Source: Thermoplasmata archaeon (GTDB lineage: Archaea > Thermoplasmatota > Thermoplasmata > Lutacidiplasmatales > UBA184). Taken from it: 64,000 nt of DNA. The stretch is taken from contig JAKAOF010000001.1 in NCBI GenBank assembly GCA_021823345.1, positions 120,174-184,173 of the forward strand, written 5' to 3'. The notes below the pieces were generated by a model. It saw only the letters and a list, made by a program, of their open reading frames with translations. It had not been told where the DNA came from and ran no database searches. Shown one piece after another: positions 1,766-52,704 of the stretch. The stretch's first letter is position 1; every line of letters starts with the position of its first letter. The position numbers and the translations under genes were made by a program.

Positions 1766-4357
1766 ATGAGCTATCATGGCTCATGGGTCTCGAACGAATC
1801 CTACGTTCCCCTCTCTCTCGCGTTTCTCCTCGGCTTGATCACACTCTTGGCCACCCAGTCCTTCTTGCCAACCATCTCGGAATCTTCGGCCGATCGCCCA
1901 TCGCCTTATGCCTCCCACCAGGGTCCCGCGCAGTCTCCCTCGGCCCTTCCCGCGGTAGGTGCGAGCACCCTTCGAGGTATCGACGTCTCACAATACCAGA
2001 AGACTCCGTCCTGGGGGAGCGTGGCGGGGAGTGGAGTCGTGTTCGCGTTCGCGCGTGCCGTGGCCTACTACGGGCAGAACGACCCCGACTTCGGCTACGA
2101 CATGTCGAATGGCCACGCGGCAGGGGTGTATATGGGCGCTTACGACTTCGTCTATCCTTCGTACGAGTCGGCTTCGGGCGACGCCGACTACTTCAACGGC
2201 GTCATCAAGCCCTACGTCAGCGCTGGCTACATGTATCCCGCGCTCGACCTCGAGGAGGATTGCGTGGCCTCCGGGGGCAGCATGAGCGCCTCGCAGATCA
2301 CCGCTTGGGTGAATGCCTGGGCCACGGAACTCCAAAAGGACCTGGCCAGTGACGGATACCCCGGGGTGAACCCGATCATCTACATGAACAGCAATTACGC
2401 CTCCAATTGCATCACTTCCGCCATCGGAGGATGGCACGTGTGGATCGCGGACTACTGCGGTTGCGGAGCCCCGAGCACCGGCATATTCGGCTACTGGAAC
2501 TACTGGCAGTATACCAGCAGCGGCTCGGTCAACGGCATCTCCGGGAGCGTCGACATGGATCTCTTTGCCGGCACGCTGTCCAACCTCCAATCGGGGTTCC
2601 TCTTCGGCGGAGCGCCTTTGACGGCAAGCTACTCTGTGCAGGATACGACCTCGGGGAGCCCCCTGTACTGTGGAGGTACGTTTTACACGGGCGACACGAT
2701 CAGATTCCAGGGCTCGGCCTCCGGGGGCTCCGGAGGTTACTCCTATGCCTGGAACTTCGGGGATGGGACGAGCGGGACTGGAAATCCGGCGAGCCACGTT
2801 TACACGAAGACGGGGACGATCGATGCCATCCTCACCGTGACGGACTCGAGCGGCGGTTCGAAGCAAACGGGCAGTGGGTGCCCCTTCACCGTGAGCCAGG
2901 GGCTCGCGATCGCATCCCCCCTGGCGGTCTCACCGAACCCCGTCATCGTGGGGAACGTGACGACCTTCTCCATATCCGCTAGTGGCGGGGCCACACCGTA
3001 CTCGTACTCCTATTCCGGGCTTCCCCCGGGTTGCAGCTCCTCCAGCACGAACTCCCTTTCGTGCACTCCCAATACGGTCGGGAACTACCAGATCACGGTG
3101 ACCGTGACCGACGCCCAAGGGCGAAAGGTCACCTCGACGACCTCCCTCGTCGTGCGCCCGACCCCGCTCGTCATCGCGGCCTTCTTGGCCACTCCGTCGA
3201 GCTTGATGGTCAACAACAGCACCACCTTCACGGTCCGACCCTCCGGCGGACTGCCGCCGTACTCGTTCTCGTTCACGAGCCTCCCCCCCGGGTGTGTGTC
3301 CGCCAACGTGGCCTCCCTCACGTGCGCCCCCAACACCATCGGCTGGTACACGGTGTCCGTCCAGGTCAATGATAGCTATGGCCAGACCCAGCGAGCCAAC
3401 ACCACGATCGACGTCACGCCCCGTCCGGTGGTCATCAGCGCCTTCACCGCGATGCCTTCGATCGTGATGATCGGCAACAACACGACCCTTCAGGTGAACT
3501 TCACCGGAGGACTGGGGCCGTACTCGTATTCCTACGAGGGGCTGCCCGCTGGGTGCGATACGCACAGTCTTCGCGTGTTGCTCTGCACTCCCTTCCAGTC
3601 TGGCGCCTTCACCGTCACGGTGATCGTCAACGACTCCCAAGGTAGGGCCGCCGTCGCCACCACCAATCTGACGGTGCAAGAGGGACTCACCGTATCGTCG
3701 TTCGTGGCCACTCCCGCTCTTATCAAGCAGGGGCAGAGCAGCACACTTACGGTGGACGTGACCAGCGGGATCGCCCCGTACTCCTACTCTTACCTCCAAC
3801 TTCCCCCCGGGTGCAAGAGCACCAATACTTCCTCCCTGGTATGCACTCCGACCCGCGCCGGCACCTACCACCTGATCGCTCTGGTCAGGGACTCGATGGA
3901 CCGGCTCGGGAGCTCCGTACTCACGCTCACCGTGATCGCCCCGATCACGATCCTTTCCTTCTCGGCATCTCCCACGCTCGTGACCGTGGACGAGCAATCG
4001 ATACTGACCGTCCAAACCACGGGCGGGTCATCCCCCCTCAAGTACACCTACACCGGGCTGCCGACGGGCTGCGTGAGTGCATCCGTGACCACTCTGGCCT
4101 GTACTCCTTCCGGCGCCGGAAACTTCACCGTCACGATCACCGTCACCGACTCGCTGGGGGACCAGGCGTTGAGCACGGTCAAGATCACCGTGGAGCCCGC
4201 CTACCTCGCTTCGCATCCGGCGAGTTCCCCGCTCTTCAGCCCCCTCGCGCTCGCCCTCGTCGGTCTCGGGGTCATCGTACTGGTCGGCCTGGCGCTGTGG
4301 ACCCGGCGCCGGAGACAACGCGCCGCCGAAGCCACCAAGGACAACCCCGCTTCGTGA
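1766..4357 (+). CDS. Membrane-anchored GH25 muramidase (lysozyme) with PKD domain, five Ig-like stalk repeats, C-terminal TM helix and basic tail
   Basis: 863 aa with an N-terminal hydrophobic signal. GH25 signature GIDVSQYQ (1976-1999) and ALDLEED D-x-E motif (about 2246-2260). PKD unit YAWNFGDGTSG...HVY. Five ~86 aa repeats follow, then TM LFSPLALALVGLGVIVLVGLALW and an RRRRQR tail. Confidence 0.85.
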   Translation: MSYHGSWVSNESYVPLSLAFLLGLITLLATQSFLPTISESSADRPSPYASHQGPAQSPSALPAVGASTLRGIDVSQYQKTPSWGSVAGSGVVFAFARAVAYYGQNDPDFGYDMSNGHAAGVYMGAYDFVYPSYESASGDADYFNGVIKPYVSAGYMYPALDLEEDCVASGGSMSASQITAWVNAWATELQKDLASDGYPGVNPIIYMNSNYASNCITSAIGGWHVWIADYCGCGAPSTGIFGYWNYWQYTSSGSVNGISGSVDMDLFAGTLSNLQSGFLFGGAPLTASYSVQDTTSGSPLYCGGTFYTGDTIRFQGSASGGSGGYSYAWNFGDGTSGTGNPASHVYTKTGTIDAILTVTDSSGGSKQTGSGCPFTVSQGLAIASPLAVSPNPVIVGNVTTFSISASGGATPYSYSYSGLPPGCSSSSTNSLSCTPNTVGNYQITVTVTDAQGRKVTSTTSLVVRPTPLVIAAFLATPSSLMVNNSTTFTVRPSGGLPPYSFSFTSLPPGCVSANVASLTCAPNTIGWYTVSVQVNDSYGQTQRANTTIDVTPRPVVISAFTAMPSIVMIGNNTTLQVNFTGGLGPYSYSYEGLPAGCDTHSLRVLLCTPFQSGAFTVTVIVNDSQGRAAVATTNLTVQEGLTVSSFVATPALIKQGQSSTLTVDVTSGIAPYSYSYLQLPPGCKSTNTSSLVCTPTRAGTYHLIALVRDSMDRLGSSVLTLTVIAPITILSFSASPTLVTVDEQSILTVQTTGGSSPLKYTYTGLPTGCVSASVTTLACTPSGAGNFTVTITVTDSLGDQALSTVKITVEPAYLASHPASSPLFSPLALALVGLGVIVLVGLALWTRRRRQRAAEATKDNPAS
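2903..4198 (+). repeat. Tandem array of five ~86 aa Cys-pair Ig-like (He_PIG/PKD-like) coding repeats
   Basis: Units at aa 380-467, 468-554, 555-640, 641-726 and 727-811. Each carries GG..PYSYSY.GLPPGC.S.N..SL.C.P...G.Y.V.V.V.D..G. Confidence 0.8.
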
Positions 4358-4482
4358 TCACCGACCGGGGCATCGGAGACCTCCTTCCCCGTACTCCACT
4401 GAGGGGGGGCTGCGACCGCACGGCTCGTTCTCGTCCGCAGGTTCTCGGTGCGGACAATGAGCACCGACTCGCCCCGACTCAA

Positions 4483-4490: not shown

Positions 4491-4515
4491 CCCCCGGAGA
4501 TAACAATCCTTGCGA

Positions 4516-7500
4516 ATGCGCGGATATCCATCGGTCTTGGCGAGGAACCACCCGCTCCCCGCGCTCGCCTTGGTGCTCCTTCTATCACTCCCTTCGGGGG
4601 CCGCTTGGGTCGGGCCTCATTCCCCCGCGGTTCGAGGACCAGCGGCACCGTTCTTGCCTCGCGGGGCCTTTCTCAATCGGAACGTAAGCTTCTCCGGAAA
4701 CCTCGGGTTGGATTTCGGGGGAGGACCGCTGTATCAGAACACCAACGCCTCAGCCTGGGGGGCGGGCAATGCCCTTCTGGGCCTCTACGCCGCCTACAAC
4801 CGAAGCGACCTCTTTCTCGGTATTCAGGAGAACATTACGGGAAACAGTCTCATGGTCTTCGTGGGAGGCGAGGGAGTCGGCGGGATGGGTACCTTCAATC
4901 TCTCGGGCCTCAACGCGTGGTCCCGGTCGATCACCTTCACTTCTCCCGTAAGCGACATCGCGGCCCTCTATTTCGGAGGGAACAACATCAACGTCTCGGG
5001 GTACGGGGTGTACCAGGTCCTCACCCCCCCCTCGGACAGTAACTCCACGCCCAGCGACCGCATGGTGTCTTCGACACATCTCTTCTCCGCCGTCAACGGC
5101 TCGGTGGAGATCGCGCTGCCGATCGCCTCCGTCTTTCCCTCCAATCCGTCTCCCCAGGAGAACCTCACCCTGGGGGCGTTTGTCGTGGGGAGTTCGGGCT
5201 CGTGGGTCGGCACGGGCATCCCCTTCCCCCAGGCTGGAAAATACAATGCGGGAGGTACACAGACGAGCTTCCTCGTGAACGATACGCTCCGGCTTCCCCT
5301 CGCGGGCCTTCCCGTCTCGCCGTCCCAGCCCATCAATGTGGCGATCGTCTTCAACGATCACCAACCGGTCTACGAGGTCGCCGGCCAAGCGACCTACAAC
5401 CTGCCCTGGACCGAAGCCCATGCCACCGCGGAGTACATCGAGCAACCCCTCCTGCTCCGCCAGTATCCGGGCATCAACATCACCTACGAGCTTTCCGGGT
5501 CCCTGCTTTGGCAATTGGAGAACATCTCGACCGATCCTGGTTTCAATGACTCCTTCATCCAGGGAGCTTTCCTCCCGTACTCGCAGCTCAACACCACCCA
5601 GAACCAGACCCTCCTCTCCAATCTTACCTCGGACTACTTCAGCGTCCCCGGCTATGTCTATGATTTCAACGAGACGGCCTCCCGGACCTATCGCCAACTC
5701 GAGACGCAGTGGTCCTCCGGGAAACCCCTCAACGCCTCACAGTTCGAGGACGCCAAGGTGCTTTGGTTCCTCTATGAGGTCAGCACGGACCTCGTCGAAG
5801 GGCGCTTGGGAAGTTCATGGATCTCCCCCTCCCTCTGGGCCCTCCACAACCAGTCCTCGTTCACCCAGTCGGACCTAAAGACCATCCTCCAGTACAGCCA
5901 GTGGCTCACCGGCCAGGTGATCCCCGCCTTCCGCTCCGTGATGCTCGGGAATCAGACGGGATCGGACAATACGGAGCTCTTCACGAGCCCCTTTTACCAC
6001 CCACTGACCCCCTTGCTCCTTACCCCCTCGATCTCGGGTCCCTCCGGTTCCCTCACGAAGGGGGTCTACACCTCGGACGTCCTCGCTCAGATGAATTTGA
6101 GCCGAGACCAGTTTGACCAGATCTTCGGGCAGTACCCCCGTGGGCTCTACGCTTCCGAGGCCGCCGTTTCGGAGGCGATGGTGCCCCTTGTCGCAATGTC
6201 CGGCGCCCAGTGGACCGCGACGGATGAATGGACCTTGCAGCAGTCGGGAGTTCCCGCATCGGCGTGGGGGGACCCCTCTCACACGGTCGCCTCCCTGGAG
6301 GACCTCTACACTCCCTACGTCGTGCAAGACGCGAACGGCACCTCCACCATCATGCTGTTCCGCGATGCCCCGCTGTCGAACGCCTGGGCCTTCAACTACG
6401 GCAATCAGAACACGACCACCTCCGTATCGGACATCGTGAATTACCTCAAGGCGATCAACGGGGCGATTCCGGTGGGGGATCACCCGCGGACCCTGGTCAC
6501 CCTGATGCTTGACGGGGAGAACTGGCAGTTCATGTCCCCCTTCGCGGACGATGGGATCCCCTTCCTGGAGGCGCTCTACCGCGCGCTCGAACAGAACCGG
6601 AGCTACCTGCACACGGTGACCCCGAGCCAGTTCCTCGACTCGCTTCGCGGTCAGCCATGGTTGCTGCCATCCCTCGGTGCGGTCGCGACCGGGACCTGGA
6701 ACCAGGGGAGCGGTTCCTCCGCCCCGGACCAGTCCAATCCCTCGCTCACCCAATGGTCGGGGTACCCGGCCCAGGATTGGATGTGGCAGGATCTCGATAC
6801 CGTCCGGCAACAGGTCGTACAATTCCAACAGCGATGGGGGCTCACCCAGCTCGAGAACCTCACCGCCTTTGACCGGAACCTGACCGCCTCCACCCTCGAA
6901 GGGAACCTCACCCGGGCATGGTACGGCATCTACAACGCGGAGGGCAGCGACTGGTACTTCCAGATGGCCCCTTGGACCATCTCCGGTGCCAACACGGCAC
7001 CCTTCAACGCGACGTTCCAAGGTGACCTGGCATACGCGCTGTCCCAACTTCATCCGATCTTGACCCCTCCTTCGATCACGGCGTTCACCGCATCTCCGAA
7101 CCCGGTACCGGTGAACGGGACCTCTCGGCTCGACGTGAGCGTGAGCGGGGGCGTAGCGCCGGTGAGCTTCCAATACGCGGGGCTTCCGCCGGGTTGCCAC
7201 AGCGCGGATTCCTCCGTCCTCAACTGCACGCCGACCTCGGCCGGGAACTTTACCCTCCGAGTGTACGCGAACGATTCCCTCGGTCATTCCGCGAACGACT
7301 CTTTGCTTCTTTCGGTAACGCCACGCAATTCGCTCGTGTCCGTGGCCATCACTCCTTCCCAGGCGTCGATATTCCCTCTCCGTAGCGAGAACTTGACGGC
7401 TACCGCGTTGTGCTCGGGCGCCCCCACCCCTTGCCCGTCCGGGCTCACCTACACTTGGAGCACGTCCAATGCCCTCGGGACCGTGATACCCTTCGCGAAC

Positions 7501-8355
7501 GGTACCGCCCGATTCGTGGCGGGCAATCTCTCGGGAAACACTTCGGTCACCGTGACGGCCCGTCTCAACGGGACCAACCGGACGAGCGCCCCCGCCTTCC
7601 TCACGGTCCTCCCGCTCGCCCCTCCGATCTCGGTGAAGGCGTCTGCTTCGGTGCTCTCCGGGACCACCCCGCTCCCGGTCAACTTCACCTCGTCGATCTC
7701 GGGGGGAACTGCCCCGTTCTCCACCGTGTGGACCTTCGGGGACGGGAAATCCTCGCTCGTCCCCGACCCCGCCCACACCTATGTCCGAGGGGGTCGTTAC
7801 ATCGTGAACCTCTGGGTGAACGACTCCTCACTTCCCTCCCCCCAGCGATATCATGCGACCTTGGAGATCAACGTCACCGGCCTTTCGGTCACCCTCTCCC
7901 CGATCGCTGAGATCGCACTGGGCGGAACGATCCAGATCACCGCGGTGGTCTCGGGCGCGGTGGGGGCCGTGACGTACCAGTGGACGACCTTGCCTCCAGG
8001 TTGCACGGGCGGCAACCTGAGCCAGATCAGTTGCATTCCCTCCCGGGTGGGTTCCTTCCCTATCCAACTGAACGTCACCGATAGCGCCGGCCAGACGGCG
8101 AGCGGCAACACTTCCGCCGCGGTCCGGCCGCCGCCGAGCTGTGGCTGCGTGGGCCCCGCCGCTCCCTCGCCGGTCATCTGGGCGGCCCTTGGGGTCGCAG
8201 CGGTCGCGTTCCTCATCGGGGTTTACGTGCTCCGGTCAAGGTCCCGGCACCGGGGCGGTTCGCCCAAGAATGACGCGCCCGCCTCCCGGACTCCGGAGGA
8301 GAGCGTTTCCAAGAAGGCGCCGGAACCCGAGCCCCCCGGGCCGTCACGGTCTTAA
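4516..8355 (+). CDS. Membrane-anchored GH57-like alpha-glucan hydrolase with N-terminal sugar-binding-like domain and Ig-like/Big_2/PKD stalk
   Basis: Signal peptide PALALVLLLSLPSGAAW. GH57-type motifs: IVFNDHQP (HQP at 5359-5367), LYASEAAVSE (Glu at 6157-6159) and LMLDGENWQF (6511-6522). The C-terminal part has a GLPPGC..C.P repeat, a Big_2-like unit, a PKD unit (WTFGDGKS) and a second GC..C repeat, then a TM and basic tail. The ORF track starts at TTG 4510. ATG 4516 is preferred. Confidence 0.7.
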   Translation: MRGYPSVLARNHPLPALALVLLLSLPSGAAWVGPHSPAVRGPAAPFLPRGAFLNRNVSFSGNLGLDFGGGPLYQNTNASAWGAGNALLGLYAAYNRSDLFLGIQENITGNSLMVFVGGEGVGGMGTFNLSGLNAWSRSITFTSPVSDIAALYFGGNNINVSGYGVYQVLTPPSDSNSTPSDRMVSSTHLFSAVNGSVEIALPIASVFPSNPSPQENLTLGAFVVGSSGSWVGTGIPFPQAGKYNAGGTQTSFLVNDTLRLPLAGLPVSPSQPINVAIVFNDHQPVYEVAGQATYNLPWTEAHATAEYIEQPLLLRQYPGINITYELSGSLLWQLENISTDPGFNDSFIQGAFLPYSQLNTTQNQTLLSNLTSDYFSVPGYVYDFNETASRTYRQLETQWSSGKPLNASQFEDAKVLWFLYEVSTDLVEGRLGSSWISPSLWALHNQSSFTQSDLKTILQYSQWLTGQVIPAFRSVMLGNQTGSDNTELFTSPFYHPLTPLLLTPSISGPSGSLTKGVYTSDVLAQMNLSRDQFDQIFGQYPRGLYASEAAVSEAMVPLVAMSGAQWTATDEWTLQQSGVPASAWGDPSHTVASLEDLYTPYVVQDANGTSTIMLFRDAPLSNAWAFNYGNQNTTTSVSDIVNYLKAINGAIPVGDHPRTLVTLMLDGENWQFMSPFADDGIPFLEALYRALEQNRSYLHTVTPSQFLDSLRGQPWLLPSLGAVATGTWNQGSGSSAPDQSNPSLTQWSGYPAQDWMWQDLDTVRQQVVQFQQRWGLTQLENLTAFDRNLTASTLEGNLTRAWYGIYNAEGSDWYFQMAPWTISGANTAPFNATFQGDLAYALSQLHPILTPPSITAFTASPNPVPVNGTSRLDVSVSGGVAPVSFQYAGLPPGCHSADSSVLNCTPTSAGNFTLRVYANDSLGHSANDSLLLSVTPRNSLVSVAITPSQASIFPLRSENLTATALCSGAPTPCPSGLTYTWSTSNALGTVIPFANGTARFVAGNLSGNTSVTVTARLNGTNRTSAPAFLTVLPLAPPISVKASASVLSGTTPLPVNFTSSISGGTAPFSTVWTFGDGKSSLVPDPAHTYVRGGRYIVNLWVNDSSLPSPQRYHATLEINVTGLSVTLSPIAEIALGGTIQITAVVSGAVGAVTYQWTTLPPGCTGGNLSQISCIPSRVGSFPIQLNVTDSAGQTASGNTSAAVRPPPSCGCVGPAAPSPVIWAALGVAAVAFLIGVYVLRSRSRHRGGSPKNDAPASRTPEESVSKKAPEPEPPGPSRS

Positions 8356-11942: not shown

Positions 11943-14900
11943 ATGGTTTCGCGATCGCTGTCACTGCGGATTGGACCCCCCCCTGGCGTGGGCCCTGGGT
12001 CGCGTAAACTCCTCGCATCCGGTCGGAACCGCTACTCCGCTTGGGTCTGGTTGTGTATCGCGATCACGGCAAGTCTCAGCGTGACCGGGTTGCCCGTGGG
12101 GTTCAACGGACTCGGGAACCCCGGGGCGACGCTCGCCGCACCGACGTTGTATGACGGCCCCGCGGTCCCATTGCCGCACGTCAATCGGGCTTCTAGCTCG
12201 GACCTGCGCTCGACCCTGAGATCGCCGCTCGGCATCCCGCTGACCACGCGCGCTTCCACCGCTTACGAGGTCGGCACTCCCGTCGAGGTCAGTCCTTTGT
12301 CCATTGGTGGGGGCGCCAAGTCGAACTATGTGGCCAACTGCGCCGTCTACGACCCGAACAGCGGGAACATTTTCTTTGCGAATGGGGCCGCGAGCACCAT
12401 CGCGGTCTTCAACACCACGACGGACCTGCAAACCAGCAGTTTTGTTGTCGGTAACCGGCCCTGTGCGCTGGCGTTCGATAACACGACCGGTGTCCTGTAT
12501 GCCGGCGATAGCGGTGTGGGTTACGTCTACGAGATCAACCCGACCACCGGGGCGGTTCTTACCCAGATAGCGGTTCCGAGCCAGGTGGGGGGTTTGGCGT
12601 ACGACTATGCGAATGATACGCTGTTCGTCACCATCTCGGGAACCAATGAGATGGTCGTGGTCAGCACCGTCACTCAGGCGGTGGTAGCGACCCTGGGAAG
12701 TGGAAATCGCCCGGTAGGGGTCGCCTATGACCCGGCGGACAATTATGTGTATGTTGCCAACTCCGGGACCAATAACGTCTCGGTGGACAATGCAACGACC
12801 TACCGGCTGGTCACCAATGTTAACCTTGGCCTTACTCCGAACGATGTCATCTACGATCCGCAGAACCAATCGGTCGTCGTATCGGTCCCCCAGTCGGGTC
12901 AAATCATTCTGCTCCATGGTATAGCGGCCATCACCTACTCAGGAGGCTCGTTCCAACCGGGACAGATGGCCTGGGACCCGGTCAACCAACTCCTCTACCT
13001 AACTCCCTATTCTGGCGCACCGGGCTCGGGCCTTGAGGCACTGAACATCTCGAGTGGCGCGTTCATCTCGCTCGGTCAGAGCTGGGGCAACTCCCCGTAC
13101 TTTCCCGCGGTGGATCCCTCGACCGGGGAACTCTTCGACTATTCGAGCGGCATAGCACGAGTACTCGTCGTCTCGACGGTGCTTCACCTCGGCACGCCCA
13201 GTGTGGCCTTCAGTGGGATCTCCACGACCGGGTCCGGTGTGACCAATCTGACCAGCGTGCCCTCTCCTTACGGGCTCGCCTACAACCCGGGCAGTTCCAT
13301 GGCGTACGTCTCAGATTACTCGAATGCGACTGTCAGTGCCTACAATCTGACGACCAATGCGCTGGTCTTCCGCGCAAGTACGGGAAGCTCCCCTGTGGGA
13401 GTCGCCTTCGACCCCACGGCGGGAGAGATTTTCGTCGCCAATTCCGGGTCGGCCACTTTTACCAAGATGAACGCAGCCACCGGGGCGAGTCTAACGACCT
13501 ATGGGGTTTGGCCGAACCCCCTCTCCGTCGTGTATGACGAGGCTCGGGGGTACGTGGAGGTAGCCAACAACAACAACGTGACGATCTTCAACTCCAGCGA
13601 ATCCTTGACACTATCTCGAATTCAAACCGGATACCCCGACCCGTACGGGGAGACGATCGATGGAGCGTCCGGGATGCTGATCGTCGCAAGCTGCACGCCG
13701 ATCGGTGGCGTGCTAACCATCGTCAACCCTGCTCCGCCTTCGGCGGGGAGCGTGATGGGGGTGGGCAGCTGCGACACGGCCATCACCTACGACCCCGCCA
13801 ACGGAGACCTTTACGTGGCGGATGAAGCCTCGGGTCAGGTGGATGTTGTCGGAGGGGTCAATTACACGCTCATCGATCATATCCCGGTGGGCTTGAAGCC
13901 TCTCGGGGTCGCCTACGATCCGGCCAACGGCTACGTCTACGTGGCCAACGCCGGATCTGGCACGATCAGCGTCATCAACGACCTCTCGCAGTCCGTGATC
14001 TCCACCATCTCCGTGGGAGGGTCGCCGCAGTCCGTCGCCTTCGCATCGCGGAGCGCATCGATCCTCGTGACGAATCCCGCGTTCTCCTCCCTGCAGTCCG
14101 TTCCGTCGGAGAAGGATATCGTCCCCGCAACCTCGAACGTATTTGACGTGGGCAGGAGCGCAACGTTCACGGCCCCGCTTCCCGAAGAAGGCGCCGGCCG
14201 CCTCCGCGAGTCCCTTTCCGTAACCCCTGGATATGGCCTCATCTGTCAGGTGGAGTCGCCGGGCCATGCGCTCTTGCCCTTCACGTGCACGGGGAACACC
14301 AGCGGGAATTACACCGTGGACCTCACGGTGAACGATAGTGTCGCAACGGTCGTTTCTTCGGTGAACGTCACGGTGGCTCCATTACCATCCGAGGGGCCGA
14401 TCACCGCCTCCCCCCCTTCCATCGATCTCAACAACGCTTCGGTCACCTTCAGCGCCTCCCCGATCGGCGGGACACCCCCCTACACCTTCCGGTGGACCAC
14501 CGCGAATGCCACGCTCGTCTGCCCGGGATCGACCAGCGTGACGCTCTCCTGCTTACCCACGGCCGCAGGGAACTTCACCGTGACCACCGGTTTCATGGAC
14601 GCCGATGGCGTGTACAGTGGGAATGTGTCCACGGTCTACCAGGTCTTCCCGCGCCCGGCCGTGACCCTGTCGGAGTCCGCTTCTGCGATCGATGTGGGCC
14701 AAGCCGTCAATTTCACGGCGGTGGCCACCCTCGGGAACGGCATCTACCACTACACGTACTCCGGACTCCCGACGGGATGCCTTACCTCGAACGTTTCGAC
14801 CCTTCCCTGCCTTCCGACCCAGTCGGGGAACTTTTCAGGGATCACGGTCAGGGTACGCGACACTTCGGGCGGTGCCAATCTGTCCTCGCCCGTCAACCTC

Positions 14901-16580
14901 ACGGTGTACCCCCGCCCTCAGATCGTGCTCTTCCGCGCCGTACCCGCGAACGACTCGGTGGGGGTCGGCATGAGCTTCGCCGTGATCGCGACCGGAGGCG
15001 AAGCCCCGTACTCGTACGCGTATTCGGGGCTTCCCGCGGGATGTAACTCGGTCGATACGGGACAGCTTAACTGTACTCCGAGCGCAACGGGCACCTACAA
15101 CGTCTCCGTCCTGCTGAAGGATTCGCTCGGGGAAACTTCCCTGGGGTATGCCCTCCTCACGGTCTATTCGCTTCCCGTGGTCAGCGGCTTCCACATCCTT
15201 CCGGACCCCGTGGTCGCCGGCCAGGCGGTCGCGCTCTCGTCCTCGATCTCCGGTGGAACCCCCCCGTATTCCCTTTCCTATACTGGGCTGCCGCTCGGTT
15301 GCCTGACGGAGAACCTCGCGAACTGGACCTGCACCCCGGTCGCCGCCGGGAATTATTCCATCACGTTGTCCGTGGTAGACGGCCGAGGTTCGACCACGTC
15401 CGCTCAGGCGCCGCTCACGGTGACCCCTCAGTCCGGGGGCCCGGTCATCACCTCCTTCGTGGCCACGCCCAACCCCGTCGGCCAGGGGACGAACACCACG
15501 ATCCGCACCACCGTCAGCGGCGGGAAGGCACCGCTTTCCTATCTCTATTCCGGGCTCCCGCCCGGGTGTTACGACACGAACGCGAGCGCGATCTCCTGCG
15601 CTCCCACCTCCCCTGGGAACTACTCGATCTCGGTCCTCGTGCGGGATACCTTGGGGCGGCTCGCCCACGGGAACCTCTCCCTCGAGGTACTTTCGAGCGG
15701 GAAGGTCACTCCGCCGACCGTCACCTTGGTCAGTAGCGGTGCCACGATAACCGCCGGTGGAACGGTCAATCTTACGGCCCAGGTCACGGGCGGGCTCGGG
15801 CCGTTCCGGTACGCCTGGTCCCTCAACGGGACGAACGTCTCTACGGCCCCCGATGCCCCGCAATGGTCCGAGGCGCTCGCCCATCCGGGAACCTATCAGT
15901 TCCGCTCCTGGGTCGTAGATGGACGGGGACAGGCCGCCGGGAGCAACACCGTGACGGTCTCGGTGGTCGCCAAGGCGCCGACCACAACTTCCCAGAACGC
16001 TCTCGCGTTCAACACGTGGATCTACGTGATCATCGGCGCCGTGGTGATCCTGGCCATACTCCTCCTCCTGTTCCGGCGGCGGAAGGCCGGCCCGGCCGAC
16101 CGCTCCGCCGACCGTCATGGGGTTCGGGACTCGGATGCGGGCACTTCGGCAGAGAGCGCTCCTTCGCCTCCGGGAACTCCTCCCTCCTCGCCCGTGCCGG
16201 GGTCTTCCTCCGACCCCATCGCTGCCGGCTCCCCGGTGGCCGAATCCGCGCTTCCGTCACCCACACCGTCGCTCGACGACGTCGAGGAGGCCCGGAAGAA
16301 GCGGATCTCCGTCATCGGGCTCACCGAGTGCCCCCTGTGCCGGGTCGCGCTCCCCCAAGACATGAAGTGCCCCCAATGTGGCATGGACTGGAGCCCCAAG
16401 CCGGCGGGATCCTCCTCCGGGGCGAGTTCCACCGCCCCCTCCGGCTCAGAGAGCTCGGTGGCGAAGGAACCCGCGGGCGGAACGGGGTCCTCCGCTCCCT
16501 CGAGATCTCCCGACGACATCGAGGAAGAACTTCGCCGGGCGGAAAAGCGCATCCGGGACCGGAAGGAATCCCCACCGTAA
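11943..16580 (+). CDS. Giant surface protein: YVTN-type beta-propeller repeats, Ig-like stalk repeats, TM helix, cytoplasmic tail with zinc ribbon
   Basis: Repeated P.GVAYDP.....YVAN.G.N.VSV units (YVTN beta-propeller repeat pattern). Five to six GLP.GC..C.P repeats plus a PKD-like unit. TM WIYVIIGAVVILAILLLLF (16017-16073). The tail carries CPLCRVALPQDMKCPQCG (16329-16382). The ORF track start 11634 overlaps the divergent gene, so ATG 11943 (MVSRSLSL) is preferred. Confidence 0.8.
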   Translation: MVSRSLSLRIGPPPGVGPGSRKLLASGRNRYSAWVWLCIAITASLSVTGLPVGFNGLGNPGATLAAPTLYDGPAVPLPHVNRASSSDLRSTLRSPLGIPLTTRASTAYEVGTPVEVSPLSIGGGAKSNYVANCAVYDPNSGNIFFANGAASTIAVFNTTTDLQTSSFVVGNRPCALAFDNTTGVLYAGDSGVGYVYEINPTTGAVLTQIAVPSQVGGLAYDYANDTLFVTISGTNEMVVVSTVTQAVVATLGSGNRPVGVAYDPADNYVYVANSGTNNVSVDNATTYRLVTNVNLGLTPNDVIYDPQNQSVVVSVPQSGQIILLHGIAAITYSGGSFQPGQMAWDPVNQLLYLTPYSGAPGSGLEALNISSGAFISLGQSWGNSPYFPAVDPSTGELFDYSSGIARVLVVSTVLHLGTPSVAFSGISTTGSGVTNLTSVPSPYGLAYNPGSSMAYVSDYSNATVSAYNLTTNALVFRASTGSSPVGVAFDPTAGEIFVANSGSATFTKMNAATGASLTTYGVWPNPLSVVYDEARGYVEVANNNNVTIFNSSESLTLSRIQTGYPDPYGETIDGASGMLIVASCTPIGGVLTIVNPAPPSAGSVMGVGSCDTAITYDPANGDLYVADEASGQVDVVGGVNYTLIDHIPVGLKPLGVAYDPANGYVYVANAGSGTISVINDLSQSVISTISVGGSPQSVAFASRSASILVTNPAFSSLQSVPSEKDIVPATSNVFDVGRSATFTAPLPEEGAGRLRESLSVTPGYGLICQVESPGHALLPFTCTGNTSGNYTVDLTVNDSVATVVSSVNVTVAPLPSEGPITASPPSIDLNNASVTFSASPIGGTPPYTFRWTTANATLVCPGSTSVTLSCLPTAAGNFTVTTGFMDADGVYSGNVSTVYQVFPRPAVTLSESASAIDVGQAVNFTAVATLGNGIYHYTYSGLPTGCLTSNVSTLPCLPTQSGNFSGITVRVRDTSGGANLSSPVNLTVYPRPQIVLFRAVPANDSVGVGMSFAVIATGGEAPYSYAYSGLPAGCNSVDTGQLNCTPSATGTYNVSVLLKDSLGETSLGYALLTVYSLPVVSGFHILPDPVVAGQAVALSSSISGGTPPYSLSYTGLPLGCLTENLANWTCTPVAAGNYSITLSVVDGRGSTTSAQAPLTVTPQSGGPVITSFVATPNPVGQGTNTTIRTTVSGGKAPLSYLYSGLPPGCYDTNASAISCAPTSPGNYSISVLVRDTLGRLAHGNLSLEVLSSGKVTPPTVTLVSSGATITAGGTVNLTAQVTGGLGPFRYAWSLNGTNVSTAPDAPQWSEALAHPGTYQFRSWVVDGRGQAAGSNTVTVSVVAKAPTTTSQNALAFNTWIYVIIGAVVILAILLLLFRRRKAGPADRSADRHGVRDSDAGTSAESAPSPPGTPPSSPVPGSSSDPIAAGSPVAESALPSPTPSLDDVEEARKKRISVIGLTECPLCRVALPQDMKCPQCGMDWSPKPAGSSSGASSTAPSGSESSVAKEPAGGTGSSAPSRSPDDIEEELRRAEKRIRDRKESPP
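14393..15705 (+). repeat. Tandem array of about five to six ~86 aa Cys-pair Ig-like coding repeats
   Basis: Successive units contain PYTFRW..., YHYTYSGLPTGC, PYSYAYSGLPAGC, PYSLSYTGLPLGC and PLSYLYSGLPPGC, each followed by ..C.P...GN[YF]. Confidence 0.75.
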
Positions 16581-34480: not shown

Positions 34481-34572
34481 CACGGGTGATTATCGTATGT
34501 ACAACCGCTTCGGGGATGAAGGCATCGGTCGGTGCCGAGCGAGTGGTAAAACAATCCGACGAACCGCACCGT

Positions 34573-36513: not shown

Positions 36514-37767
36514 TTACGTCTCTTCGGGGGGGGCCCGTGCCTTCAGTCGCATGAGGTAGGTCAAAATGTCCTCCCCGGGAGTTTGGGGCGTGTCGAGTTC
36601 CTTCCCGACCTTGGCGGTCAAGTCCGCGCCGACGCGGATGAGGGCGCTTAGGTCCCGCTCGGGAAGCCGGCGGAACGCTTCTACGAGATCGGCGTCGATG
36701 GCATCGAGGATCTTGAGGAACGATGGTTTCACGTGGGTCGGCGGCAACGCGAGCATCCGCTCGAGATACGCACCCGCGGCCTCCTCTTCCCGCCGGGCGA
36801 TCCCGCGTCGGGAGGCCTGTTCAAGTGCGGAGATCTCATCCTCCAATAATTGGTTGACGATGCCTCCCGTATTCTCTCGGGCCACACCCAGGGCTTGGTC
36901 TACAGCGGTCGATATCGCCACCTGGGAGCCATCACCTTCCGCACCGAGGCTGCCCACGAGCATCGCCTGCCCCTCGGAGGCGGAGAGGTTGGCGAGGGGG
37001 GGCATTTCGAGTGCCTTGGCGGCCTGACTACCCCGCGGGAGGGCGGCGATCCGCATGAACGATGGTCGGATGACCCGGTCTACGTAGGATAGGGGAACCC
37101 CCAGGGTCGGTAACCGCTCGATCTTCAACTTGCCCTTGAGCAGGCCGTTCAAGATGAGGTTGCGTGCTGTACCATCGAACCCCAGCACGGGAGATGCCAT
37201 GTCCTCCCGGCGACAGTCGGGGCACAGGCTGTGCTTGCTCCAGATCTCGTCGTCCCCGATCGCATTGTGGACCTCGCGCTCCGCCTTGGGGGACGTGCGA
37301 AATGGGATGCCGCATCGGTGGCAGATGACGAGCCGATAATCGCTGCCGAAGTCGGATGGACAATGGGGGCATCGCCACGGATAATGGGAGGCATCGATCC
37401 GGGTCCCACAGAGCGAGCAAGGGATCTGGGTGAACTTGGGTTCGGCGGGGAAGCGATAGATCGTGACTCCGAGCTTGCGCGAGCCTTCCACGACCGCGTC
37501 CGGTACAGTGACCGCCAACATCACTCGATGCACTGGCCGATCCCCGGCGGCTCCCTTGTGCTCGAACAACGTGATCAGGTTGGCACGCGTCGCCGTCCGA
37601 GAAGCGAGGATGAGCCATAGTTCGCCCTTCGACTCGTAGGCGATACCGCGATGGACCCACTCCCCCTCCACGTCGAGCATGGAAGTGATGAGCCCACGCC
37701 CTGCTGGGCCCGACCGCAGGAACTGATGATAATAGGGAAGTAGGTAAATACGCTCACTCGGTATCAT
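36514..37767 (-). CDS. Hypothetical protein: N-terminal possible PD-(D/E)xK-like domain, two CxxC zinc-ribbon pairs, C-terminal helical domain
   Basis: 417 aa from ATG 37767. The longer listed ORF (to 38274) is antisense to the Nudix gene. Contains LDVEGEW..YESKG and CSLCG..CPHC..CHRCG..CPDC (37213-37419). Confidence 0.55.
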   Translation of the reverse strand: MIPSERIYLLPYYHQFLRSGPAGRGLITSMLDVEGEWVHRGIAYESKGELWLILASRTATRANLITLFEHKGAAGDRPVHRVMLAVTVPDAVVEGSRKLGVTIYRFPAEPKFTQIPCSLCGTRIDASHYPWRCPHCPSDFGSDYRLVICHRCGIPFRTSPKAEREVHNAIGDDEIWSKHSLCPDCRREDMASPVLGFDGTARNLILNGLLKGKLKIERLPTLGVPLSYVDRVIRPSFMRIAALPRGSQAAKALEMPPLANLSASEGQAMLVGSLGAEGDGSQVAISTAVDQALGVARENTGGIVNQLLEDEISALEQASRRGIARREEEAAGAYLERMLALPPTHVKPSFLKILDAIDADLVEAFRRLPERDLSALIRVGADLTAKVGKELDTPQTPGEDILTYLMRLKARAPPEET

Positions 37768-37785
37768 GCGAAGTGAACCCCGAGA

Positions 37786-38325
37786 ATGGCTATGAGTGAG
37801 CCAGTAGATAAACCCGTGGGGTCGGCGCTCACAAAGCACTTCGTGGCAACGGCCCTCATCGTCCGGAACGACCGGATTTTGCTGGTGCATCACCGCAAGA
37901 TCGGCCTGTGGCTGCCTCCGGGGGGCCACGTGGAAGCGCATGAAGATCCGGTCGAGGCCATGCACCGGGAAGTTCGGGAGGAGACGGGGCTCGACGTCAC
38001 GATCGTTCCCGCCGCGGACCCTCCCGTATCCACGGATGAGAACGTTCGAGTGTTGCCTCCTCCCCACCATGTACAGGTCGAGCGCATCGCGGAGGGGCCC
38101 CACGATCACGTAGATCTCGTCTATCTCTGCGAAGCCCTGCCGGGGATCGAGAAGGGGAATGCCGAGTCCCTGGGTCTCCGGTGGTTCACTCTCGAGGATC
38201 TGCGCTCGCCAGAGATCGTCCAGAATGTTCGTTACTATGCGCAGAAGGCGATCGAAGAAGTCGCGGCTTACCACTCATCTCAACGGGCAAAAGCTTCGGC
38301 CAACTCACAACGAGGCAGCCCGTGA
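37786..38325 (+). CDS. Nudix hydrolase
   Basis: Nudix box GGHVEAHEDPVEAMHREVREETGLDV. Confidence 0.85.
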   Translation: MAMSEPVDKPVGSALTKHFVATALIVRNDRILLVHHRKIGLWLPPGGHVEAHEDPVEAMHREVREETGLDVTIVPAADPPVSTDENVRVLPPPHHVQVERIAEGPHDHVDLVYLCEALPGIEKGNAESLGLRWFTLEDLRSPEIVQNVRYYAQKAIEEVAAYHSSQRAKASANSQRGSP

Positions 38326-48900: not shown

Positions 48901-48927
48901 AGCAGACGGAGGCCTTAAATCTAGCGC

Positions 48928-51900
48928 ATGGCGACCGGGAGAATCCGCTCGCTTTCGCGCGTGGGGGACCGAAACGGGGCCCATCGCTGGTTCCGCAAGC
49001 ATTTTGGACAGGCACTCTCTTCCCTGCCGCTGGTGAGACGTGCTGTGAACCGGAACATCGAAGGAAGGAGCTCCCTGACCTGGACGATCTTCATCGTGGC
49101 GATCGGCGTGCTCCTCCTGACGCCGGGAGGTTTCCTCTCCACCGGGTCCACCGTTGCCTCGCACCCGGTCGCGCCGGTTTCACTCGTGTCCCGGTCGTTG
49201 ACTCGGGCGCTACCCTTCGGGGCTCCGGGCCACTCATCCTCGAGAACGATGGCCGGTCCGGCCCTTTCCTACTTCCCCTCCGTTAACCAGTCGATTGGCG
49301 TCAACTATCAGGCGACGAGCAATCCCACCGCACAGAACGAACCGGGGATCGCCGTCAATCCGACCAACCCCCGGAACATCATCGTCTCCGGGAACGACTA
49401 TAATGTCAACGCCACGGGCTCGGTGTTCGGACCTTGGGCCAGCGAGTGGACCTCCATGGATGGCGGGGCCTCTTGGTCATATCATCCGGCCGCGATGAAC
49501 TCGACGTTCCCGGGCGGACATCCTTGCTTCGGCGGTGACCCCAACGTCTTCTTCGGCCCGGATGGGACCGCCTACTTCGCCGGTATCGGCTATTCGGACC
49601 CGGTCGCCTCATCGACCTGTGGCAGTGCAAGCTCGACCAATGGCGGGCTCTTTGTCGCCCACTCCACCGACGGAGGATTGACCTGGAACTATGTGTCCGT
49701 GGCCAACGACTCGGCAGGGTATTGGTACGACAAAGAGTGGATGGGTGTCGACCCATCGACCGGGACGGTCTCGATCGATGTGATGCAGTACGGCCTCACG
49801 AGCTCATCCGCCCTCATCCAGTACTTCTATTCCACGAACAAGGGCGTCTCTTGGAATGGCCCGATCGACGTCAACAATCCCGCCGTGGACCAGAACATGG
49901 TGGCCGCGGGGCTCGCCGTCGACAACCAGGGAGGCATCGATGTCGTTTGGCAGAACGAGTCGGCCGGCAACGTGATCGAGTTCTCCCGCGCCAGTGCCCC
50001 CGGGAACCCCTTCTCCGCCGAGATGGCATTGGGGACCATCAACTGCGCCCCGGCCCCCCCGGGAGGATTTCCCGAGATCAATGGGGTCCAACGGATGAAC
50101 TGCTTCCCTCAGATATTTGCCGATGACTCCTCGACCAGTCCCTACAAGGGCAATCTCTACATCGTCTACTCGACGAACACCACCTCGTTGCAGATCCAGC
50201 TCCTCCGGTCCACGAACTACGGCTCCTCATGGACCTCTCAGGCTTCCGCCGTTGCGGTCAACAACGACCCGAGCGACGGGGCGGATCATTGGTTCCCGCA
50301 GGTGACCGTCGGGAAGAACGGCACGGTCTACGTCGAGTTCCTGGACCGCCGATACAACTCCGGCAACCTCCTCGTGGATACCACCGTAGGGGTCTCCACC
50401 AATGGCGGGGTTTCCTTCTCCCGGAACATCCGTGTTTCTTCCGTAAGCGGGAATCCTGACGTATGGACGGGTTTCATGGGAGACTACCAGAACGTGTGGT
50501 GGTCCGCCAACGGGACTTTCTCGGTGTGGACCGATTTCCGTAACGGGGTCGCGGGCAACATGAACGAGGACCTCTACGTGGGCCAGTTGGTCTGGGTCAA
50601 TGTGACCGCCAACATACCGGGAGTCACCGCCACCGTGGATGGGACCTCCGCACCCCTGTCGGAGAAGGTCTGGTGGAACCATGGTACGATCCACAACGTC
50701 TCCGTACCTTCGACCGTCACCTACCTCGGTAACACCTATTCCTTCCAGCGGTGGCAGGGGTATTCCACCTCCACATCGCCGGCCCTCACCGGTGTGACGG
50801 CGCTGGGGACCGGTCGATTGACCGCGGTCTATCTGAGCCCGAGCCTCAAGAACCTCTCCGCCGCCGTGACCACGCTCCCTTCCGGGAGTGCCTCCACCAG
50901 CCAGCGGGTGACGGTGAAGGTCAATGTGACCTCCTCCGGATCCCCCGTTTCGGGCGCCAAGGTCTCCTTCTCGGATTCACTTTCCGATGCCTTCACTCCG
51001 TCCTTGGGCACCACCTCGGCGACGGGACTCGCCTGGGCCAACTTCACCACCCCGCTCGTTGCAAGCGCCACCAACGACACCGTCTCGGTGACGGTGAACG
51101 CCACCGGCTACAATCCGGGATCGGGTGGGGCCGCTCTCAACATCACTCCCTCCTCCACGGGACCGGTCATCAACCGGTTCCTCCCGGGCCCCAATCCCAT
51201 CGACCAAGGTTTCACCACGTTCCTCAATGTGAGCACTTCCGGCGGAAAGAGTCCGCTTACCTACCGTTACACTGGACTTCCGCCGGGCTGCAGTTCTCAG
51301 AACGTCTCGTCGCTGCCATGCTCCCCTACCTCCTCTGGTAACTACTCGATCACGGTCAATGTCACCGATGCTTCGGGACTCTCCCACACCGCGACCACCC
51401 TCCTCGAGGTCTTCCCGGCTCCCGCGATCTCGTCGTTCACCGCCACTCCGTCCTCCGTCAAGGTCGGGAGCGCCACTTACCTCAACGTCACGGCCACCGG
51501 GGGTTCCAGTGCGCTCCGATTCGTCTACGTCGGTCTCCCCCCGGGCTGCGCGACGTCCAACACCTCCTCCCTGCGCTGTGTGCCGACTCTCGCCGGCAGT
51601 TTCGCGGTCACGGTCTTTGCGAATGACTCCTTGGGAGGAACCTCCCAGAGGACCTTCGACCTGAGCGTCTACCTCGCTCCGGTGATCACGTCGTTCACGG
51701 CCGCGCCCAACCCCGCCTTCGTGGGGGGGACCGTCTATCTCAACGTCTCGACGACCGGCGGCGAGGGGGTCATCTCGTTCGCCTACGGTGGGCTTCCGAA
51801 CCTCTGCGTCTCTGTCAATACCCCCACCTTCACTTGCGCGGTCAACACTCCGGGGAATTACTCGGTGCGGGCGTATGCGAACGACTCCTTCGGCCATTCG

Positions 51901-52704
51901 ACCTCGGCCCTCGCCTCAGTGAGCGTTCTCTCCCTTCCTGCGATCAGCGTCTTCACCATGTCGCCCGCTCGCATCGATGTCTCCCAAACAACTTATCTCA
52001 ACGTGACAGCCACCGGGGGAGAGGCTCCCCTCACGTACTCGTTCGTAGGTTTGCCGGGGGGATGCCTTTCGACCAACTCCATCCACCTGCCGTGCTCGCC
52101 GACGACCTCCGGAAGTTTCCCGGTCCAAGCGCAGGTGAAGGATGCCGCCGGTCATGTGGCCACCCAGTTCGCGACCCTCTCGGTCGCTGCCATTCCCACC
52201 ATCTCCGCGTTCAATGCCTCTGCAAATCCCGCGACGGTGGGCACCGTGGTCGCCTTCCATGTCCTTGCTGCCGGAGGCCAGGCGCCGCTCACCTACTCGT
52301 ACTTGGGACTGCCCCCGGGTTGCCAAAACACCTCGGTCCCCAACTTCTCCTGCACTCCCGCCACCGCCGGAACCTTCAACATCACGGTGGTGGTCGAGGA
52401 CGCGAGCCATGAGTCGGCTTCGGCCGTTCTCCGGCTCAGCGTGGTCTCGCCCCCGGCGGCCTCCAATGGGTTCTTGGGGATCGGGTCCACCACCCTGGTG
52501 ATCCTGCTCCTCGTGGCCGTCGTGGTCGCGGTGGTCATCGCCACCCTCGTGGTCCTGTCGAGGCGCCGGCGGCAGTCTCCCCCCGGTAATCCCGTCTCTG
52601 CTCCTCCGGGACCCCCGCCGGGGTGGCCCGCGGGCCCGCCTCCTCCCGCCCCGGGTTACTACCCGCCCCCTCCGGGGGGGTACCCTCCGCCGCCGCCGGG
52701 ATGA
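48928..52704 (+). CDS. Giant surface protein: BNR/Asp-box (sialidase-like) propeller, Ig-like domains, five Cys-pair stalk repeats, TM helix, Pro-rich cytoplasmic tail
   Basis: Asp-boxes SMDGGASW, STDGGLTW, STNKGVSW, STNYGSSW and STNGGVSF. Five GLPPGC..C.P repeats. TM LVILLLVAVVVAVVIATLVVL. Tail PPGPPPGWPAGPPPPAPGYYPPPPGGYPPPPPG. The start may be GTG 48961 rather than ATG 48928. Confidence 0.8.
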   Translation: MATGRIRSLSRVGDRNGAHRWFRKHFGQALSSLPLVRRAVNRNIEGRSSLTWTIFIVAIGVLLLTPGGFLSTGSTVASHPVAPVSLVSRSLTRALPFGAPGHSSSRTMAGPALSYFPSVNQSIGVNYQATSNPTAQNEPGIAVNPTNPRNIIVSGNDYNVNATGSVFGPWASEWTSMDGGASWSYHPAAMNSTFPGGHPCFGGDPNVFFGPDGTAYFAGIGYSDPVASSTCGSASSTNGGLFVAHSTDGGLTWNYVSVANDSAGYWYDKEWMGVDPSTGTVSIDVMQYGLTSSSALIQYFYSTNKGVSWNGPIDVNNPAVDQNMVAAGLAVDNQGGIDVVWQNESAGNVIEFSRASAPGNPFSAEMALGTINCAPAPPGGFPEINGVQRMNCFPQIFADDSSTSPYKGNLYIVYSTNTTSLQIQLLRSTNYGSSWTSQASAVAVNNDPSDGADHWFPQVTVGKNGTVYVEFLDRRYNSGNLLVDTTVGVSTNGGVSFSRNIRVSSVSGNPDVWTGFMGDYQNVWWSANGTFSVWTDFRNGVAGNMNEDLYVGQLVWVNVTANIPGVTATVDGTSAPLSEKVWWNHGTIHNVSVPSTVTYLGNTYSFQRWQGYSTSTSPALTGVTALGTGRLTAVYLSPSLKNLSAAVTTLPSGSASTSQRVTVKVNVTSSGSPVSGAKVSFSDSLSDAFTPSLGTTSATGLAWANFTTPLVASATNDTVSVTVNATGYNPGSGGAALNITPSSTGPVINRFLPGPNPIDQGFTTFLNVSTSGGKSPLTYRYTGLPPGCSSQNVSSLPCSPTSSGNYSITVNVTDASGLSHTATTLLEVFPAPAISSFTATPSSVKVGSATYLNVTATGGSSALRFVYVGLPPGCATSNTSSLRCVPTLAGSFAVTVFANDSLGGTSQRTFDLSVYLAPVITSFTAAPNPAFVGGTVYLNVSTTGGEGVISFAYGGLPNLCVSVNTPTFTCAVNTPGNYSVRAYANDSFGHSTSALASVSVLSLPAISVFTMSPARIDVSQTTYLNVTATGGEAPLTYSFVGLPGGCLSTNSIHLPCSPTTSGSFPVQAQVKDAAGHVATQFATLSVAAIPTISAFNASANPATVGTVVAFHVLAAGGQAPLTYSYLGLPPGCQNTSVPNFSCTPATAGTFNITVVVEDASHESASAVLRLSVVSPPAASNGFLGIGSTTLVILLLVAVVVAVVIATLVVLSRRRRQSPPGNPVSAPPGPPPGWPAGPPPPAPGYYPPPPGGYPPPPPG
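51160..52452 (+). repeat. Tandem array of five ~86 aa Cys-pair Ig-like coding repeats
   Basis: Units carry PLTYRYTGLPPGC, ALRFVYVGLPPGC, VISFAYGGLPNLC, PLTYSFVGLPGGC and PLTYSYLGLPPGC, each followed by ..C.P...G.[YF]. Confidence 0.8.

Follow-up and report, generated by a model that had tools for sequence, protein, structure and literature searches.

In archaea, surface proteins laid out as a head, an array of immunoglobulin (Ig)-like or PKD domains and an anchor have been known since 2002. In that year Jing et al. reportedly described, in Structure, modular archaeal surface proteins composed of YVTN propellers and PKD repeats (PDB: 1L0Q). Such PKD surface or surface-layer proteins are modular, with a propeller or an enzyme as the head followed by PKD-fold repeats at the cell surface. 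The He_PIG (PF05345) or dystroglycan-type cadherin-like repeats are beta-sandwich domains of ~90 amino acids (aa) which occur in tandem arrays in cell-surface proteins, and in Staphylococcus aureus the cadherin-like (CDHL) modules of SraP (PDB: 4M00-4M03) have been demonstrated in experiments to act as a rigid stem from which a lectin head projects (PMC4047093). Both He_PIG and PKD are families of long standing. The present analysis concerns a stretch of 64,000 nucleotides (hereafter the window) from a Thermoplasmata archaeon (assembly GCA_021823345.1, contig JAKAOF010000001.1, positions 120,174 to 184,173), an uncultured organism derived from metagenomes only. Four of its gene products, referred to as proteins A, B, C and D, share an Ig-like unit of ~88 aa with two invariant Cys residues (the Cys-pair unit), which lies between an N-terminal head that differs from protein to protein and a C-terminal transmembrane (TM) helix. 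We consider it probable that this unit represents a lineage-typical Ig-like subfamily of the He_PIG/PKD (E-set) domains, and that the Cys-pair arrays serve as a stalk which holds the heads off the membrane. The four proteins are a lineage-wide version of the known PKD/He_PIG surface-protein design and not a new kind of system. What is new is a large, apparently Thermoplasmata-centred subfamily with a strictly paired, putative Cys staple, and the fact that surface enzymes and propellers with a C-terminal anchor have the Cys-pair unit as their common stalk.

A hidden Markov model (HMM) of the unit, seeded on the pattern [LV]P.[GLN]C...C.P, was searched against the 564 stop-to-stop open reading frames (ORFs) of at least 60 aa in the six frames of the window, and its matches are confined to the ORFs of A, B, C and D (Table 1). 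They amount to 17 Cys-pair units (five in A, two in B, five in C and five in D), of which 16 are canonical (~88 aa) and one is a variant with C-x9-C, or to 18 if the degenerate C-x14-C unit of C is counted. This agrees with the initial annotation of the window, which had reported at least 17 copies in the same four ORFs, at coordinates within ~15 nt of ours. The columns C48, C58, G64, D74 and V88 do not vary among the 17 aligned units, whose mean pairwise identity is 30-47%. A profile built from the five units of A alone detects all units of B, C and D (i-E values 5e-13 to 4e-25) and has 0 matches in residue-shuffled ORFs. Thus, the homology of the units across the four proteins is beyond chance, and units of different proteins align with one another as had been claimed. 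Tandem Repeats Finder reported no period near 260 nt in the window; there is no tandem repeat at the DNA level, the copies having diverged too far for that (two units are at most 58% identical in nucleotides).

Table 1. Proteins A to D and their domains (nucleotide positions are those of the window, aa positions those of the respective protein).
Feature	Position	Strand	Remarks
Protein A	1766..4357	+	863 aa; ORF translation, Pfam, unit HMM
A, N-terminal hydrophobic segment	aa 16-34	+	
A, head, GH25 muramidase	aa 72-258	+	Pfam 1.9e-26; motifs GIDVS, LDLEED
A, canonical PKD domain, adjoins array	aa 305-368	+	Pfam; WNFGDG or WTFGDG motif
A, array	2891..4195	+	units 2891-3157, 3155-3418, 3416-3679, 3674-3937, 3932-4195; i-E values 5e-34 to 9e-32
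A, C-terminal TM helix LALALVGLGVIVLVGLALW	4244..4300 (aa 827-845)	+	14 aa past last unit
A, tail after TM helix		+	starts RRRRQR
Protein B	4510..8355, likely ATG 4516	+	~1,280 aa; signal-like N-terminal segment
B, head, GH57 glucan hydrolase	aa 278-713	+	Pfam 8.7e-58
B, order after head			unit B1, Big_2-like domain, canonical PKD, unit B2, TM helix
B, unit B1, Cys pair	7057..7320	+	i-E value 1.7e-32
B, canonical PKD domain	aa 1046-1106	+	Pfam; WNFGDG or WTFGDG motif
B, unit B2, Cys pair	7855..8127	+	i-E value 4.8e-25; most divergent canonical unit, membrane-adjacent
B, TM helix	aa 1222-1240, nt 8173-8229	+	followed by basic/Pro-rich tail
Protein C	11943..16580, frame open from 11634	+	1,545 aa from ATG 11943; signal-like segment
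C, Ig-like units		+	7-8 in number
C, array	14139..15968	+	degenerate, variant, four canonical and Cys-less units
C, degenerate unit, C-x14-C	14139-14378	+	
C, Cys-pair variant	14379-14639	+	
C, canonical units	14643-14909, 14904-15167, 15162-15425, 15429-15692	+	
C, Cys-less unit	15702-15968	+	
C, TM helix	nt 16017-16073	+	
C, cytoplasmic tail	16074-16580	+	~170 aa, Ser/Pro-rich
Protein D	48928..52704	+	1,258 aa; N-terminal hydrophobic segment aa 53-71
D, head, BNR/sialidase-family propeller	aa 176-497	+	5 Asp-box motifs
D, Ig-like linker domain	between head and array	+	
D, array	51151..52446	+	units 51151-51414, 51409-51672, 51667-51930, 51925-52188, 52183-52446; i-E values 6e-22 to 5e-33
D, TM helix	aa 1191-1209, nt 52498-52554	+	

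Structure prediction with AF2 on the 17-unit alignment gave a confident all-beta model (pLDDT 92.6, pTM 0.76). The results from a Foldseek comparison with the PDB place the cadherin-like stem modules of SraP as the best matches (4m02/4m03; E value 1e-4, TMq 0.70), together with the PKD domains of ColG, ColH, PrtV and AAVR (TMq 0.70-0.76) and the archaeal YVTN and PKD surface-layer protein (1l0q_A; TMq 0.71). SraP, whose CDHL modules contain a similar motif, LPSGL...GTP..G, is also the top PDB match at the sequence level (1.6e-7). According to the model, the unit has a PKD-type beta-sandwich with an Ig-like fold. With He_PIG it has in common the signature GG..PY.Y...LP.G...........P...G.Y...V.V.D, and the He_PIG motif LPxGL...G.isGTP..G.Y...V.V.D is present in the units with Cys replacing L and G, the columns corresponding in hhalign. 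The units differ from He_PIG in that most of them are under the Pfam cut-off, in the paired Cys-x9-Cys which stands instead of the Leu and Gly of LPxGL...isGTP, and in that the Cys-pair form has been seen almost only in metagenome-assembled genomes (MAGs) of Thermoplasmata, as judged from a narrow-pattern scan and from the homologues. From PKD arrays (PF00801/PF18911) they differ by the Cys pair, by a profile similarity lower than that to He_PIG, and by the lack of WxFGDG, at the position of which the units have Y-x-Y-x-G-L-P-x-G-C.

The initial annotation had considered the units to be closer to He_PIG than to canonical PKD. The motif and the profile-profile comparison bear this out, whereas single-unit Pfam scans name PKD more often (E<0.01; PF00801 in 12 of the 17 units, He_PIG in five). 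Using hhalign, the probability is 98.6 (E value 6.7e-16, 36% identity) with 40 Cys-less He_PIG-type units from the 'putative Ig domain-containing protein' P0013 of Halarchaeum, a set which was picked up by the query HMM itself, so that the comparison is biased towards similarity; it is 97.7 (E value 2e-12) with PKD domains of the canonical WxFGDG type, taken from the same proteins and lineages. Seven canonical units score 30.9, 14.3, 23.3, 16.6, 17.9, 20.5 and 29.6 bits with PF00801, two of them passing the cut-off of 23.5, and the same units score 33.7 (A1), 17.1, 16.1, 23.8, none, 15.9 and 18.5 bits with PF05345 (cut-off 24). Judged by sequence, the unit is a divergent domain of the He_PIG/PKD clan, nearer to He_PIG in motif and in profile-profile comparison. 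No dedicated Pfam or NCBIfam model for the Cys-pair unit was matched; NCBIfam has no model for it and returned only weak tandem-95 and LapB repeat matches, far under cut-off.

The two Cys residues are gained and lost together. Of 2,268 units aligned to the HMM, which originate from the 150 top-ranking representative proteins and the 68 GTDB loci (described below), 1,398 have both Cys residues, 860 have none and 10 have a single one; within proteins with mixed arrays the corresponding counts are 1,398, 155 and 7. The C-x9-C spacing was found in 1,006 of 1,170 scored units, and further Cys residues within the units are rare. In units without the pair, the first of the two columns is L, T or S and the second is G, as in the classical He_PIG motif LPxGL...tG.isGTP. 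Because the Cys residues are paired, extra Cys residues are rare, and the arrays are extracellular (see below), an intradomain disulfide is the most economical reading; the pair would most likely form such a bond, and the suggestion of a disulfide made in the initial annotation is strongly supported by this co-occurrence.

In each of the proteins A to D, a hydrophobic segment is present near the N-terminus and a single, strongly hydrophobic helix near the C-terminus, and the residues directly after the helix are RRRRQR, RSRSRHR, RRRK or RRRRQ. The distance from the last unit to the helix is 14-17 aa in A, B and D. As had been noted, the array of each protein has the head on one side and a lone C-terminal TM helix, with Arg and Lys residues after it, on the other. 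In archaea, N-glycosylation takes place at the outer side of the cell membrane. The N-x-S/T sequons number 1.5 per 100 aa in A, 3.5 in B, and 2.5 in both C and D, i.e., 9 to 21 times as many as in 15 cytoplasmic proteins of the window (0.17 per 100 aa; 7,454 aa), and individual units have 1-5 sequons each. Being rich in sequons, the arrays are therefore located outside the cell, as had been proposed, rather than in the cytoplasm. Unlike the arrays of archaeal PKD surface-layer proteins, those described here have a C-terminal TM helix as their anchor, and the cytoplasmic tails after it vary; the tails of the four proteins are mutually unrelated and range from 18 to ~170 aa. The NCBIfam sorting-signal models have no match in A to D, and the PGF motif is absent. 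The four proteins thus lack the sorting signal of PGF-CTERM/archaeosortase-processed surface proteins, in which a PGF motif and a TM helix are combined with a basic tail of very few residues.

Two of the tails have features of their own. The tail of protein C includes the zinc-ribbon-like sequence CPLC-x10-CPQC (16329-16379), without a Pfam match, and in some relatives zinc_ribbon_2 (PF13240) is found with PKD and thermopsin or NHL. This is a hint that some of the stalk proteins may be coupled to the cell interior. Protein D has a cytoplasmic tail (52555-52704) of nearly pure Pro and Gly (…PPGPPPGWPAGPPPPAPGYYPPPPGGYPPPPPG).

The four heads were correctly recognised in the initial annotation as GH25, GH57, YVTN and BNR/Asp-box, as the results from Pfam, from TIGR02276 and, for D, from the Asp-boxes and the BNR_2/BNR domains of homologues indicate. 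The head of protein C consists of YVTN/NHL beta-propellers (TIGR02276 in NCBIfam; 89.7 bits vs. a cut-off of 27.85). The YVTN propeller comes first and the PKD-fold repeats after it, an order which only C among the four proteins has and which it shares with the YVTN-PKD protein of Methanosarcina mazei (1L0Q). The head of protein D has no significant match in Pfam or among PDB sequences. Its homologues (query 49228-50850), which are up to 69% identical, carry BNR_2/BNR, and based on these together with the five Asp-boxes the head is assigned to the BNR/sialidase family. Bacterial BNR_2 heads are fused to C-terminal sorting domains of the type IX secretion system (T9SS) or to dockerin, and those of Thermoplasmata to PKD-like or Cys-pair repeats. 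Thus, the head is shared while the anchoring modules are lineage-specific. Canonical WxFGDG PKD domains do occur beside the arrays, in A and in B, as had been stated. With sizes of 863-1,545 aa, the description of the proteins as giant was overstated. The claim that standard annotation would not reveal the design also needs qualifying, since PKD is flagged in all four proteins and NCBI names such relatives 'PKD domain-containing protein'.

Antibacterial GH25 and other peptidoglycan hydrolases (PGHs) have been documented in archaea, including the GH25 of Aciduliprofundum boonei and PGHs of Thermoplasmatota (PMC4241558, PMC12352652). The head of protein A resembles them in being a GH25 domain with the motifs GIDVS and LDLEED. 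The product is predicted to be a GH25 muramidase with intact-looking catalytic motifs, tethered to the membrane of its own producer by a five-unit stalk. In this it would differ from the archaeal PGHs, the enzyme being tethered and not released, a difference which concerns the head and not the stalk. No description of a membrane-tethered archaeal GH25 muramidase was found in the literature. The gene for protein A is located directly upstream of that for protein B, on the same strand, with a gap of 152 nt.

An exhaustive HMM search of 1.84 billion representative proteins gave 46,041 matches at E<=1e-3 and 4,156 at E<=1e-30. Among the top 150 representatives, 119 have at least two Cys-pair units, with a maximum of 33 per protein; a TM segment is present past the last unit in 111 of these 119, and 98 have at least 250 aa ahead of the first unit. 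A scan of one genome per GTDB species revealed 68 loci, nearly all in Thermoplasmata MAGs and often several per MAG, a spread which is a lower bound and does not prove lineage restriction, as the scan started from a 4-unit alignment and the narrow pattern P[LY][ST]Y[SLR]Y[STL]GLP. The layout of array and C-terminal TM helix was found in 49 of the 57 3'-complete ORFs at these loci. The heads include Kelch (16 of 39), thermopsin, phosphoesterase, GH25, sedolisin, SBP_bac_5 solute-binding and YVTN/NHL/PQQ propeller domains, and SGNH hydrolase and BNR_2 heads were found among further stalk-bearing homologues. The survey of related genomes proposed in the initial annotation thus yielded other heads on the same stalk and, owing to this diversity on a constant array and TM layout, a reused stalk with swapped heads is true at the scale of the lineage; it is not peculiar to the window, and no recent swapping is apparent there. 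The named homologues are almost all from MAGs designated 'Thermoplasmata archaeon', 'Euryarchaeota archaeon' or 'Candidatus Lutacidiplasmatales'. Many stalk loci belong to acidic-soil MAGs with AcS/SubAcS isolate names, which we suspect to be the genomes of the Lutacidiplasmatales study. A set of loci labelled 'bacterium' (DX1.bin10) and one 'Nitrospira sp.' protein are probably binning or labelling errors. A word-indexed search of proteins that used the 17-unit alignment yielded no more than 8 short fragments, from which nothing could be learned. In the literature, no description of a Cys-pair module in Thermoplasmata was found, and the genome paper on the Lutacidiplasmatales (PMC9287336) makes no mention of PKD, S-layer or surface proteins.

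In the proposed mechanism, the He_PIG sequence LPxGL-x8-G-x-P would have become LPxGC-x9-C-x-P, and the Cys pair would staple a loop or hairpin by means of an intradomain disulfide. Tandem arrays of 2-7 units, presumably heavily N-glycosylated, would stand just outside the single C-terminal TM anchor and form an extended, stabilised stalk which, at the ~4 nm per unit typical of Ig-type domains generally, might measure about 10-30 nm in total. The stalk would keep the N-terminal GH25, GH57, YVTN or BNR head away from the cell membrane of the Thermoplasmata. A spacer role appears the most likely one, since the arrays are invariably close to the membrane, the heads are of many kinds, and the CDHL pair of SraP, the nearest relative of solved structure, is a rigid stem. 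The SraP modules do differ from the units, in that SraP is a bacterial protein which is sortase-linked to the cell wall and has two modules only, and in that its rigidity derives from Ca2+ at the domain junctions and not from a disulfide. Several observations weigh against the spacer role and the disulfide. The former has been deduced from position and analogy only. The support for the latter is indirect, namely co-occurrence and extracellular location; the counts of co-occurrence overstate the number of independent events, as the units are related by descent, and in the DSSP assignment of the AF2 model only Cys58 is in a strand. In B, the Big_2-like and PKD domains lie between the units, and the stalk hence does not consist of an array alone. 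The window also encodes two further surface proteins that have a C-terminal anchor but not the unit; the unit is therefore optional for display. Finally, in other proteins domains of the PKD and He_PIG type are also involved in substrate binding or in adhesion.

In an alternative reading, the units would be binding modules for carbohydrate, protein or cell-cell adhesion, comparable to the PKD domains of chitinases and collagenases or the cadherin-like domains of adhesins, and the arrays would provide multivalent attachment to substrates or to adjacent cells beyond mere distance. In its favour, insoluble polymers are the substrates of heads such as GH25 and GH57, and accessory binding modules are frequent in such cases. 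The fold matches include the substrate-associated PKD domains of the collagenases ColG and ColH, the Ig-like domain of Sas6 involved in starch adherence, and the PKD domains of AAVR which bind virus capsids, and the CDHL modules of SraP are known to homodimerise (PMC4047093). However, the unit accompanies heads with very different substrates (proteases, Kelch and YVTN propellers, solute-binding proteins), its surface residues are poorly conserved with only core and turn positions invariant, the 1-5 sequons of each unit would mask a binding face, and the arrays are invariably on the membrane-proximal side. We consider binding unlikely to be their function. Another alternative is that the arrays build the envelope itself, with lateral contacts or intermolecular disulfides giving rise to an S-layer-like or glycocalyx mesh that replaces a wall, the heads being secondary. 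A wall or S-layer of the classical type is missing from many Thermoplasmata (PMC10354927), these MAGs abound in members of the family, several loci being present in a MAG even when a narrow pattern is used, and the surface-layer proteins of Methanosarcina are made of YVTN and PKD modules. A strictly pairwise gain and loss of Cys at a fixed 9-residue spacing fits an intradomain bond better than an intermolecular one, though, and the copy number, from 1 to >30 per protein, is unlike that of lattice-forming S-layer proteins. As catalytic heads with intact motifs also argue for display as the primary role, a mesh of this kind is improbable.

The location of the four carriers within 64 kb, with A and B adjacent, could also reflect recent domain shuffling or the concerted evolution of a mobile cassette of stalk and anchor among these genes, a process for which the initial annotation had suggested a check of relatedness within and between genes. 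No sign of it was found. Units of the same gene are 36% identical at the amino acid level and those of different genes 34% (Mann-Whitney p=0.11), and the best partner of a unit is in another gene as often as in its own. The best partners are scattered over the genes, and both concerted evolution and a positional orthology of the units were rejected. A shared anchor cassette was likewise rejected, the TM helices and tails being unrelated in sequence in a comparison by eye. In addition, the low nucleotide identity and the lack of DNA-level repeats reported above argue against this explanation, as does the presence of housekeeping genes between the carriers. It is thus highly improbable. We take the four genes to be old paralogues in domain content only, with no indication in their sequences of recent cassette shuffling or duplication.

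A bolder proposal, which we regard as doubtful, is that the Cys-pair unit is the standard envelope building block of the uncultured Thermoplasmata of soil, peat and acid habitats (Lutacidiplasmatales and relatives), with dozens of proteins per genome all carrying it as a glycosylated, disulfide-stapled stalk and together forming a tall glycocalyx that bears enzymes and receptors and replaces the wall or S-layer. If this were true, the bacteriolytic GH25 and the polymer-degrading heads would make the envelope an organ of contact-dependent feeding or antagonism. For the stalk as described, a known design of head, Ig/PKD repeats and anchor is extended and no new mechanism is introduced. The signature LPxGC-x9-CxP in an Ig-like unit of ~88 aa, combined with a C-terminal TM helix, can be searched for and would list the displayed surface proteome of a large, uncultured lineage of archaea, including extracellular hydrolases such as the tethered muramidase. 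A dedicated model would better annotate several thousand proteins, as most units are under the curated cut-offs. The strictly paired Cys residues suggest extracellular stabilisation by disulfides in these archaea.

The window is archaeal; its other genes include those for GatD, deoxyhypusine synthase, LonB, an archaeosine tRNA-guanine transglycosylase (TGT) with a PUA domain, SRP54 and the two PheRS subunits, and its GC content is ~64%. An identical sequence of protein A is present on a 169.7-kb metagenome contig in ENA (ERZ27237364 k141_4137) and in the Logan assembly SRR13206618. Among the surface proteins of the window without the Cys-pair unit is a sedolisin/S8-type protease (31235-34483, minus strand; 1,082 aa) with a Pro-kumamolisin activation domain and a Peptidase_S8 domain. 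It has a signal-like N-terminal segment and a TM helix (aa 730-748), which is followed by a low-complexity tail of ~330 aa rich in Pro, Glu and Ala. Since this protease lacks the Cys-pair unit, C-terminal TM anchoring is independent of the stalk in this organism. An ORF of 536 aa (56359-57969, minus strand) has no Pfam or NCBIfam family, only a weak Big_1-like stretch, and contains 21 sequons (3.9 per 100 aa); it begins with a hydrophobic segment in its N-terminal part and has a TM helix in its C-terminal part, after which comes RRRERSK. Its product is probably a further anchored surface glycoprotein. An ORF of 586 aa (36514-38274, minus strand) is coding-like in the GC content of its third codon positions and encodes 10 Cys residues but no TM helix, its sole match being rubrerythrin-like and sub-threshold.

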